A stretch of DNA of 45,959 bases from Perkinsus olseni (taxonomy: Eukaryota), in contig JABANN010000264.1 of NCBI GenBank assembly GCA_013115125.1, positions 1 through 45,959 of the forward strand, written 5' to 3'. Positions 6,251 through 9,611 of this stretch are shown in pieces. Position numbers and translations under genes: made by a program. Under the pieces are notes generated by a model. That model was not told the origin of the DNA and made no database searches. It saw nothing but the letters and a program-made list of their open reading frames with translations. Every line of letters starts with the position of its first letter. Within the stretch, counting starts at the first letter, position 1.

Positions 6251-9200
6251 ATGCCATTGCCTCTCCGTTATCTACTACGGTTAAGGTCAGCAAACCAGGC
6301 TGGTGTGATCAGAAGCATCAGTACCAAGCCGGAAGCTCGGACGAAGCAAGTGGAGTAAGTTCTCTGCCTCTGCGGTATGCTTCTTGTCCGTTTTTGCTCA
6401 CGATGATTCTGATGATCATGGTTGCTTTTAGATGGACCCAACGCGTGGCCTTGCCGTTGGCGGATGTCGTCAATGGGGACGCTGCTGGGGTGACCGGACA
6501 CTTGGAGGTGTCAGAAGAGGGCATGTCTCCCAAACGACCGACTCGGAAGCAGGAGATGAGGTCGCTGTATCTGAATTGCCGTATGTGATTTGGGCAATTT
6601 CAGGGCGCGCGAGAAACAGCGGAAGGCGTGGATGGGGAAGGAGATGACAGCGTTGATGGATGATGGTTGGGATTACGAAGGGAAGTAGTGCATCACGACC
6701 ACCACAGGGACGCTCGGCTTGAGCGGTGCTCTCAGATGGCGAGGTGAGCATCTGCCTGAGGATCCCAACGTACTGTATGATGTGCTACCGAAGGCTCATC
6801 TTCGTAAAGCGGTGGTTATAGACAAGGCCTCCGGCGTCAAGAGGTGAGATTCTGCGTTAACGTATTATTATAGTATGAATCAGCCTCGCGCGACCTTCCC
6901 GTTGTCGAGCTCGAGTGTAGGGCTTTCTTCGAGGAACTGTTCTTCTGAACTCTCGTCAATGCCGGTTTATCTTTCGCGTGCCACGCTCCACGTTCTTAAG
7001 TTTCATCAGGTGGACTCCAATAGCCAACCTTCCCCCGGGTGGCCTTATCGAAATAGCTTCCTCGTCCACTGTGAAGTATCAGTCGGACAGAGGCTTCTGG
7101 GATGCCATCTGTCGACGGGCTGCTGAGTATATCAGTCATTCCCTCACTGTAAAGCAGATTCGCAGCTTGCTAGGTGAGGAAGCCAGGCAGGCAGCAGTTA
7201 CACGCATGCACATTTGACTGCGCACAGGAGCCTTGGCAAGAGCTGAGTGTAGAGCTCATCCGGGGCTACTGAGGAAGATGAGCGCGGAGCTTCTGGAGAG
7301 GTTCCCGCAGCTGACGCTGCTCACCTGCGCGGAGTGTGCCGAAGCTTATCAAAAGCTCGAGTAAGCATTCCTGCATCGTTACGGCAGACGTGCCGCTGAC
7401 GGAAGTTGATGCTGTAGTATTTGAGTTTCCCCCTTTTACATTTTATCAATTCTCAGCGACGCATAAGGGATGGGTAATTCTTCTCCAATTTCGGCCACTT
7501 CCAATTCCGCGTGGGAATTGCTTACAACTCGCAATATCCTCGTGCGAGTCTCATGAGAAATACGAGTGCCTGGCGAAATTTTTTGATTGAATAATCGCAT
7601 TTTAGGTACGACCATACAGGTACCTACATTATGCTGGCATTAGGATTTGTCCAGGAGATGGAAGACCTCCGCTATCCACTGGTTGGGTCAGAACGAAACC
7701 CGATCTCGCCTGACCGAGCTATCGGGATGGCGGTGCAGATCCTCACGGCATTCTCTAGAGCCAAACTGAACGGTGCCACCCCTAGCGATCTGCTTGACTG
7801 CTGTGCATATACACTGTAAGTGAGGTTATATCTTGCTTTCTTGCTAGTACTTGAATTTCCTCCACGCTCTCTTATGCAAGCGGTGCCCGATTTTAGTAGA
7901 GACTTGGCATCACTTCCGCTCACGCGTCAAAGAAAACGAGTTTGCAGGTGCTCGCATCGAGACATGGCGAAGGATTGCGTCGATGACTTCATAGCTGCCG
8001 TTGATGCATACCGGAGGTTCTCTCGCCACGTCACAGCAATCGAGCTTGCGAAGATTATCTTGGGGTCTGCCTGTATCCTCGAAGTGGACCACATGGCCCG
8101 CCTTGCGAGAGCGGTAGGGTGACGCTGATGAGAGTTTGCTGTGGAGGCATTCGATGGCTCGGGATGGAGAGATGCTCGACCAGGTCCACGGCGTGGAGGG
8201 GAGTGGGGCAATAACGGCTCAGTTAGCTGAGTTGATAGGGGCCACTGTGAAGGACGCAGCAGCATTGAAAGGAGAAGCTGCCGTCAAACTCACTGTAAAG
8301 GATTTGCCCGTGTCGCGCGCAATGGCGCACTAATAGATACAAACTCGCGGAGAGAGTAGTGAGTTGGATGAATTTGGCATGCCTGTAGGAAGCATATCTT
8401 CGAGGAGGATATCCATCGAAATCGATCGCCTGATCGATTTGATAGAGTGTTTCATGGCGGTTGAACTGGAAGGTGTGGTCACTGCCTTCACCGGGCCCCA
8501 TTCACCATTTGTAATTCAGTTCCTGAAGTTTTGGTAAAGGTAATTGCGAGCACCGTTGATGACTCTTACCGAGCCGCCAGAGTGCTGGGCTGGACAGAGC
8601 GTCTACCCATCGCTCTCCAGGATCGGTAAAGCACGTGAAACGTCTCCTTTCACGCAGCTTGACAGCAGGTTGGTTAACACAGTCCTAGCGAATCAGACTG
8701 GGCTGGTGCCGCATGGCCTGAGGGAGGTGTTCGAGAATCCGACCTTATCGAGGCGGGAGGACTTCTTGACGGAGCTGGCATCCCTGATGGAGAAGGAGGC
8801 TGATAGATTCAGGGAGGATCATTGTGTTATAATTGCGAGGTGCGGGGATCGAACCCGGGTGCTGGGACGGCGAGCTGACACACAGGGTCTACGGCTCCTT
8901 CGGTTCTAAATTCGACGGTGTAGTGAAGAAGTGTTTGAGGCAGCTCAACAACAGGCTCTCACAGAAGAGGTAAAGACGCCGGTCGTCCAGCCTGTAATGG
9001 ATCATCGACAGTATTTCTCCAGGCTGGAGGCCTTGGATGAAGAAAGGCCCCACCCGGGAGCGCGTAGCGAGTACAGCGGAAGCTTGCTGTGGCATGAGAA
9101 GCCGATTGATAGGGAAGAGCTTGCTGCGCAAGTATCGTGGTCTAGCGGTTATACTTACTGCTCCGACTTCTGGGGGTATCTGGTTCGATCCCCGGCGAGG

Positions 9201-9611
9201 GTCTTTCTCGTCAGGTTTGTGAGACTTTCGGCAAAACAACGTTGCATCCCAAGCTGCTGCAGCAGTTCGAACGACTCGTATCTCGGATGAGCCCCGACCA
9301 GCTTTTGAGGTCTTCTTCCAACTCGTTAGACCTGAGTAACGCCGAGCGACGTATCTTATAGGTGCGCAGCAACTCTACCGCAAGGCGTCCAAGCAGAAGT
9401 GCAACGCCGTGAGAGCAACAACAGCTACATGTATGGCGACGACAACCCTGATGAGATCGACCAAGTTGCCAAGGTACAGGACGAGCTGTATGAGCAAAGC
9501 GTGAGGACGCACTCGCAGGTCCCTGATTGTATTGCGGCGCAGATCCTCAGCCTCATCGGCTCCGTCAAGGAAGCTGAAAAGTCGTCATCATCAAGCTTTT
9601 TCGCTTACTAG
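6251..9611 (+). CDS. Large multi-exon alpha-helical-repeat protein (HPR/OPR/FASTK-like), probable mitochondrial RNA-binding protein
   Basis: Basic Arg/Ser/Leu-rich N-terminus MPLPLRYLLRLRSANQAGVIRSIST; repeat-like DRGFWDAICRRAAEYISHSLTVKQIRSLLGALARAE, QILTAFSRAKL, FSRHVTAIELAKIL. The 3' exons splice in frame to the stop at 9611. Family assignment is by pattern only. Confidence 0.6.
9132..9214 (+). other. Intron consisting almost entirely of a degenerate tRNA-like sequence (A box + B box)
   Basis: GTATCGTGGTCTAGCGGTTATAC...GGTTCGATCCCCGGCGAGGGTCTTTCTCGTCAG; removal joins ELAAQ|VCETFGK in frame. Confidence 0.7.

Follow-up and report, generated by a model that had tools for sequence, protein, structure and literature searches.

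How does a spliceosomal intron come to have the length and the internal promoter motifs of a transfer RNA (tRNA) gene? The question is raised by an intron of 83 nucleotides (nt) at positions 9132..9214, on the plus strand, of a contig of Perkinsus olseni (JABANN010000264.1, positions 1 to 45,959; hereafter the window), and all motif counts reported here were made within this one 46-kb window. An earlier note on this DNA had described the intron as a whole degenerate tRNA gene and had offered several interpretations, among them an intronised tRNA copy and a tRNA-like RNA released by splicing. On the sequence and homology evidence below, we consider it probable, at about 0.72, that an ordinary spliceosomal intron occupies 9132..9214 and that its sequence derives from a tRNA gene, of which it is a decayed copy left by a process that scatters tRNA fragments.

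Predicted splicing of the intron

The intron (GT..AG, phase 0) joins ...EELAAQ to VCETFGK... and was placed by homology to two P. olseni proteins, P0001 and P0002. Among 18 stop-free GT/GC..AG candidates compared with both proteins, 9132..9214 scored highest (632, with the runner-up at 604), and it was recovered independently when P0002 was mapped onto the window and the splice sites of the host gene were refined by enumerating GT/GC..AG pairs; reading through it leads into a stop-terminated tail without homology. The mapping yielded 19 host-gene introns between positions 6355 and 10332 (42-245 nt, median 54), and short GT..AG introns are typical of the window as a whole. By its predicted splicing, then, 9132..9214 is an ordinary spliceosomal intron. 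The last 36 nt before its AG hold only two A residues, 9188 (in the T loop described below) and 9198, with A9178 and A9166, in that order, next upstream. A good branch-site-like string is first met farther upstream, CTTAC at 9154-9158, in which A9157 lies at a distance of 57 nt from the 3' splice site.

A tRNA-like unit fills the intron

The tRNA-like unit is a stretch of 72 nt, 9131..9202 on the plus strand, that can be laid out in standard tRNA numbering without insertions or deletions (position 1 = 9131). The landmarks fall in register: T8, a D loop AGCGGTTA and a T loop TTCGATC, followed by a discriminator C and TTT. The segment covering the A box, D arm and D loop, TGGTCTAGCGGTTA at 9138..9151, conforms to a strict D-arm pattern and begins with the A-box string TGGTCTAGCGG at 9138; the B box and T loop, GGTTCGATCCC, occupy 9182..9192. 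An A box and a B box at tRNA spacing are what defines the internal promoter of RNA polymerase III (Pol III), and at the sequence level the unit has both. The trailer, 9203..9214 (CTTTCTCGTCAG), delimited from the sequence and the predicted fold, comprises the discriminator, the T run and the 3' splice site, such that 12 nt separate the unit from the exon. The window has one real tRNA gene, tRNA-Glu(TTC) at 42556..42629 on the minus strand (called by ARAGORN; 67.3 bits in Rfam), which was used as reference and has a matching 3' layout, namely A, then CTTTATCC.

The layout given in the earlier note is thus borne out by the sequence. The donor GT (9132-9133) is followed by ATCG (9134-9137) and TGGTCTAGCGGTTA, together occupying 9132-9151; the B box, said to lie about 45 nt from the start of the A box, lies 44 nt downstream of it; and the B box is followed, as described, by CGG, CGAGGGT, C, TTT and then by CTCGTCAG, 8 nt long, whose last two bases are the AG at 9213-9214. 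If G-U pairs are counted, 5/7 pairs can form in the acceptor stem, 1/4 in the D stem, 2/5 in the anticodon stem and 4/5 in the T stem, in agreement with the earlier description of a partly paired acceptor stem and a scrambled anticodon arm. The claim that the intron coincides with a tRNA-length unit retaining both Pol III boxes also stands, given that the unit accounts for 72 of the 83 nt in exact register.

A generic A box is paired with a B box at tRNA spacing at two sites of the window, the tRNA-Glu gene and the focal unit, and at least one such pair was found in only 12 of 660 windows simulated under a first-order Markov model. The stricter D-arm pattern likewise finds these two sites only (0.20 expected; 3 of 150 simulations reach 2), and 12 D-arm bases of the unit are the same as in tRNA-Glu apart from one missing base (TGGTCTAGCGGTTA vs. 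TAGTCTAGCTGGTTA). Loose A-box strings are not enriched in the window (37 observed, 42.9 expected). A global alignment of the unit with the tRNA-Glu gene gave 41 identities in 76 columns, a score that 7 of 2000 shuffles equalled.

T-arm relics in the window

The focal unit has company. When up to 2 mismatches were allowed, a search for the T-arm core CCGGGTTCGATCCC (14 nt) returned 9 sites in the window (0.24 expected; none of 100 shuffles reached 9), and the B-box pattern GGTTCGANYC occurs 8 times (0.92 expected; none of 100 shuffles reached 8). One of the 9 core sites is the tRNA-Glu gene. Five of the other 8 lie in homologue-confirmed introns (5662, 8845, 9179, 32544 and 41940), one (20019) in an intron of a Rab-like gene and one (32015) in a putative intron consistent with the reading frame; in all, at least 6 of the 8 are located within introns. 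The focal relic is therefore one of about nine, mostly intronic, and the question shifts from a single odd intron to a recurrent process.

Three of the confirmed introns, in unrelated genes, have the T-arm core 7 nt after the donor G. In the TXNDC9-like gene, the intron 5655..5704 (plus strand, 50 nt) starts with GTAGGTC and has the core at +7; its junction, QIVDK|HLTVLAEKY, agrees with P0004-P0008 from three Perkinsus species and was the best of 14 candidates (Protein Data Bank look-ups with two short exons of this gene gave no match at E ≤ 10). In an endonuclease/exonuclease/phosphatase-like (EEP-like) gene, the intron 32537..32589 (plus strand, 53 nt) also starts with GTAGGTC and has the core at +7 with 0 mismatches, the junction AVDQ|YSPKN, best of 14 candidates, being that of the P. 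marinus protein P0003. In an EF-hand-like gene, the intron 41933..42041 (plus strand, 109 nt) starts with GTGAGTC, again with the core at +7, and its junction DEKWNR|YLGESVQ, best of 4 candidates, is that of P0009; a shorter version, 41933..41980, was rejected because its frames failed to join, P0009 giving 41933..42041.

These three introns share the first ~20 nt, i.e. the donor and the T arm, and their 3' parts cannot be aligned, within this one window. The donor GTAGGT is found in none of the 19 mapped host-gene introns. Between 5655 and 32537, 13 of the 15 nt that precede the T stem are identical, including 8 exon bases (0 of 400 shuffles); since the exons at both sites encode conserved residues, we take the exon identity to be a coincidence or a target preference. 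Two introns, the focal one and the putative 31963..32066 (plus strand, 104 nt, GTGAGT..CAG, supported by the flanking reading frames only), start at the 5' end of a unit of full tRNA size. The B box of the latter lies 55 nt from the donor and is followed 5 nt on by an inverted copy (GTTCGAGCCC ... GGGGGTCGAAC), the two forming a hairpin in the predicted fold.

The remaining relics are placed differently. The host gene carries a second one in its intron 8840..8885 (plus strand, 46 nt), where the T-arm core at 8845-8858 lies in the opposite orientation, 5 nt past the donor. The Rab-like intron, 19771..20179 (minus strand, 409 nt), which contains a sense T-arm relic at 20019-20032, splits WDTAG|QERF, the conserved small-GTPase motif, and ARAGORN at 85% thresholds makes a call at 20007-20070 within it. 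The relic at 22895..22908 (minus strand, 0 mismatches) is followed by a TTTT run and, 15 nt on, by a TAG acceptor-like site, and is flanked on both sides by weak minus-strand exons by codon score, in a noisy codon-usage map. A ninth relic, 30645..30654 (minus strand), found with the B-box pattern, lies ~320 nt upstream of the EEP-like ATG.

Six of the 7 intron relics are oriented like their host gene. A 5' half can be recognised in the focal unit only, the other relics consisting of the T arm and 3' part. Several have a T run at the position matching that of the T run in the real gene and none has a CCA end; the T runs suggest copies of genes or of primary transcripts rather than of mature tRNAs.

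Two further sites should be mentioned here. At 44969-44985 (minus strand), a partial T-loop-like string, CGGGTTCGAAG, below the core pattern, is followed by TTTT and is possibly a more truncated relic. At 32486-32569, the 80% thresholds of ARAGORN produce a tRNA-like cloverleaf in which all 7 bp of the acceptor stem are perfect; as a tRNA this candidate was rejected, its 5' 51 nt belonging to a coding exon that is conserved and its 3' 33 nt being intron, and, in view of the 29 mostly spurious 'tRNAs' that ARAGORN yields in the window at this setting, its 5' half was judged to be due to chance.

Origin of the intron

Under the reading that we prefer, the process would scatter tRNA-gene fragments, mostly the T arm and 3' end, through non-coding DNA, many of them into introns. 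The content of the focal intron would then be tRNA positions 2-72, the discriminator, the T-rich trailer and 8 more bases to the AG. The donor would be the GT at the 5' end of the tRNA and the acceptor the AG just past the T-rich trailer, which would serve as the pyrimidine tract and, in sense orientation, would sit where one is needed. The decayed copy would no longer fold or score as a tRNA and would be removed with the intron. Of the interpretations in the earlier note, it is accordingly the intronised tRNA copy that we retain; the two functional ones, a nested Pol III transcript and a tRNA-like RNA set free by splicing, find no support in these results.

Several results weigh against this reading. 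The Rfam tRNA model RF00005 (gathering threshold 29 bits) gave no match to the unit at E ≤ 10 when 8600-9500 (901 nt), 9115-9225 (111 nt) or the whole window was searched, and ARAGORN at 80% thresholds made no call in the register of the unit. Without covariance or ARAGORN support, tRNA ancestry rests on the two motifs together with the trailer and the spacing of the motifs. Likeness to tRNA-Glu is limited to the D loop and T arm, the 27 nt in the middle of the unit matching it at shuffle level (831 of 2000). No target-site duplication was seen beyond the splice-site consensus (CAA|GTAT vs. CAG|GTTT). The donor GT falls on acceptor-stem positions 2-3, which are unpaired with the 3' strand; either a later mutation produced the GT or part of the acceptor likeness is spurious. 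P0001 and P0002, which match the upstream host-gene exon 8544-8839 with 95% and 89% identity (other exons of the window match P. marinus and P. chesapeaki proteins at 81-93%), have the junction in common, implying that the intron is not very recent. Finally, none of the 45 pairs of downstream flanks of relics is similar at p ≤ 0.05, and blastn-short between relic sites found only core matches of 11-18 nt.

The first of these results also settles the status of the unit. The covariance-model check set in advance by the earlier note failed, and with it the claim of a whole degenerate tRNA gene; together with the ARAGORN result, this makes the unit a relic instead of a degenerate but recognisable tRNA gene. 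It lacks the four paired stems of a cloverleaf, those of the D and anticodon arms being broken. The unit with its discriminator (9131-9203, 73 nt) folds no better than shuffled sequences (z = -0.05), and no cloverleaf appears in its minimum free energy (MFE) fold. The MFE fold of the whole intron (z = -1.94) contains a 7-bp hairpin of 9194-9200 with 9206-9212, in which the 3' acceptor strand pairs with the trailer and not with the 5' end. The unit is not a tRNA; it is a relic that keeps both promoter boxes, their spacing and the trailer.

Likewise, with the relics alike only in the T arm, there is no evidence for a single mobile family, and they probably do not form one, judging from their sequences. 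A common short interspersed nuclear element (SINE) body or trailer, suggested by eye from GAGGGT and TCAT likenesses, was ruled out by the flank comparison, and the focal unit lacks the tRNA-unrelated body and the tail, A-rich or like that of a long interspersed nuclear element (LINE), that characterize tRNA-derived SINEs. The pattern fits fairly recent, independent copies of different tRNA genes, or retention of B boxes at the DNA level.

Within the preferred reading, the narrower inference that the inserted tRNA fragment itself became the intron has, in our estimate, somewhat less than an even chance. It is suggested by the lengths: 83 nt minus 72 nt leaves 11 nt, the smallest local intron being 42 nt, and the unit with its trailer so fills the intron that there is no room for an older one. 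Alternatively, a tRNA-gene fragment landed in an existing intron, and deletions or turnover then removed the older sequence, the coincidence of unit and intron being secondary. The Rab-like intron, with its relic in mid-intron, illustrates that relics land or persist in larger introns. The EEP-like intron position is common to P. marinus P0003 and the focal junction to two diverged P. olseni proteins, and hence these positions are not young; the lack of a visible target-site duplication points the same way. However, this scenario requires a loss of at least 31 nt that left the A box, the B box and the exact tRNA spacing intact, and introns of 132-409 nt persist in the window, indicating that shrinkage is not forced and that there is no strong pressure towards it. 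Moreover, the relic starts at the donor in three other introns too. We regard colonisation of an older intron as possible but doubtful.

Extending the preferred reading from one intron to a class, Perkinsus might gain introns from tRNA genes recurrently, the mark of such introns being a T arm or B box right after the 5' splice site; on the present sequences this generalization is tentative and, at this stage, unlikely. Full-length or 5'-truncated tRNA-gene fragments would insert in sense orientation into coding exons and would survive if spliceable, with a GT at the tRNA 5' end or just before the variable loop as donor, the Pol III T-rich trailer as pyrimidine tract and a nearby AG as acceptor. 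Introns of this kind would possibly still be bound by TFIIIC.

The A and B boxes could also have been kept by selection, as a DNA-level TFIIIC site of the extra-TFIIIC (ETC) type or as a weak nested Pol III unit. Suggestive of this is the uneven decay of the focal unit, in which the D loop with the A box and the B box are perfect and the stems between them are scrambled. B-box scores have a bimodal distribution, with 5 of 22 introns at 10-11 of 11, the others at background and no intermediates, although the 22 include three that were added for holding a relic, the unbiased count being 2 of 19. A hidden continuum of decayed B boxes was considered and dismissed (6 introns at ≥9/11 vs. 2.98 in shuffles; 13 at ≥8/11 vs. 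12.8). Over 10 sites, 39 of 50 T-stem cells are paired, a level reached by 135 of 500 shuffles, with no significant covariation; conservation of the T stem at the RNA level is thus unsupported, and any conservation there is would resemble that of a DNA motif rather than an RNA structure. On the other hand, the candidate role rests on a sequence motif, the unit is followed by a T3 run only (although the real tRNA-Glu gene also has only T3), and the uneven decay could equally come from a diverged source copy. We know of no role for a B box beside a 5' splice site. Selection on the boxes thus appears improbable, an estimate that is not exclusive of creation or colonisation of the intron by the tRNA fragment.

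Chance, i.e. an ordinary intron in which A-box-like and B-box-like strings occur by accident, is a much weaker candidate still. The absence of a covariance-model match, the shuffle-level fold and the middle third without tRNA likeness would all be expected under it, and, very many windows having been screened, an event with a frequency of ~2% per window will turn up somewhere. Against this, the A-box/B-box pair is as rare in simulated windows as stated above, the match observed goes far beyond the generic pattern in specificity (D-arm identity, exact register and T-run trailer), and T-arm cores are in ~37-fold excess in the window; we consider an accident very unlikely. Least credible of all is the splicing-released RNA of the earlier note, an excised intron processed into a stable tRNA-like small RNA as the tRNA counterpart of a mirtron or mascRNA, since, even though the intron is tRNA-sized and the acceptor (5/7) and T (4/5) stems could stack as a partial minihelix, neither the MFE nor the centroid fold is a cloverleaf (z = -0.05 for the unit), the 3' acceptor strand is engaged by the trailer, neither the D arm nor the anticodon arm is intact and the tRNA model gives no score.

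Comparison with known systems

tRNA pseudogenes and tRNA-derived SINE heads are common in introns of protein genes in animals and plants. Like the focal relic, they are degenerate, non-functional tRNA-like sequences with A and B boxes that are found in introns in many dispersed copies. However, the focal relic makes up nearly the whole intron (72 of 83 nt), most of its sister relics are 3' parts only, and, compared with SINE heads in particular, nothing was seen of a tRNA-unrelated body, of a tail that is A-rich or of LINE type, or of a target-site duplication. Real tRNA genes nested in Pol II introns are likewise sense Pol III-type units with a T-run trailer, whereas the focal unit fails every tRNA detector used; the introns that host such genes are much longer than the tRNA.

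Introners or introner-like elements are known from Micromonas, Aureococcus, some fungi and dinoflagellates. There, the repeated sequence constitutes entire introns in unrelated genes, to which the ~20 nt shared by the starts of three introns in the window bear some resemblance. Unlike introners, though, the copies here are not near-identical along their length and showed neither terminal inverted repeats nor direct repeats; what they share is a tRNA T arm, and this could derive from different tRNA genes independently. In mirtrons and mascRNA, a whole short intron or a transcript segment is the precursor of a small structured RNA, whereas the focal intron has no supporting predicted fold. ETC sites are consensus B boxes away from functional tRNA genes that are occupied by TFIIIC without Pol III transcription. 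The B boxes described here, as sequence motifs, also stand apart from functional tRNA genes, but they lie inside recognisable T arms with acceptor- or trailer-like sequence, and in introns instead of between genes.

The origin of new spliceosomal introns is a long-standing question, transposon-like introners being the best-documented source. A tRNA gene ends in a T-rich terminator and, in some species, contains a GT in its 5' part, and so could be a ready-made intron cassette. If the pattern in the window (9 T-arm cores vs. 0.24 expected, most in introns and four abutting a donor) holds genome-wide, it would reveal a new way of gaining introns in an alveolate lineage neighbouring the dinoflagellates; if not, the focal intron is a curiosity, namely a tRNA pseudogene that has decayed in a genome rich in tRNA genes. 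The recurrent T-arm relics at intron 5' ends are a more interesting lead than the focal intron alone.

Published work bears on this as follows. Introner elements are described in Amoebophrya, not in Perkinsus (PMC7789003). A paper on P. marinus reports over 500 copies of five tRNA gene types and insertions of five Dada transposon families in tRNA genes (PMC3706591); such a copy number fits a tRNA-rich genome. Cis-spliced introns are reported in 69.2% of 104 Perkinsus genes (PMC3101222). Among the titles and abstract openings of the matches listed in literature searches, no description of tRNA-like introns in Perkinsus was found.

Host gene, neighbouring genes and other motifs

The focal intron is flanked by the upstream exon 9023..9131 (LEALDEERPHPGARSEYSGSLLWHEKPIDREELAAQ) and the downstream exon 9215..9309 (VCETFGKTTLHPKLLQQFERLVSRMSPDQLL, then the first two bases of an R codon that is completed past the intron 9310..9361), both on the plus strand and mapped with P0001 and P0002. 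The host gene has no Pfam domain on record, and a metagenome scan with P0001 found 82 stretches that fit the pattern, none of which encodes a relative; by its sequence, it is a predicted Perkinsus-specific protein gene. Public gene models (P0002, P0007 and P0008, from P. olseni, P. marinus and P. chesapeaki) merge two to three neighbours across 5100-10500 of the window, namely the TXNDC9-like gene, the focal host gene and an ARF gene; these fused models are likely to be annotation chimeras in a gene-dense region.

Two other motifs recur in the window. The over-represented GCGCCACGAAA(T) has 5 sites, at 27614, 31741 (minus strand), 32197, 32325 and 33812 (minus strand), with 22 nt in common between 32325 and 33812; at least two of the sites fall within 32181-32231 and 32307-32363, both putative short introns of the EEP-like gene. 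The motif AGCGGAGCGAA is found at 3213, 5022, 20842, 30803, 41748 (minus strand) and 25045 (minus strand), the sites at 30803 and 25045 having 19 nt in common. Two of its sites precede start codons, 5022 by ~90 nt in the TXNDC9-like gene and 30803 by ~175 nt in the EEP-like gene, and it may be an element of promoters or 5' untranslated regions.

Three plus-strand open reading frame segments, 12240-12416, 14875-15348 and 16949-17680, encode similar peptides (e.g. ...EGKEW.(I/M)AQDP...), which suggests tandem paralogues. The start of the window (3-128) is a long CAG/CTG-type repeat that encodes poly-Q in one frame.

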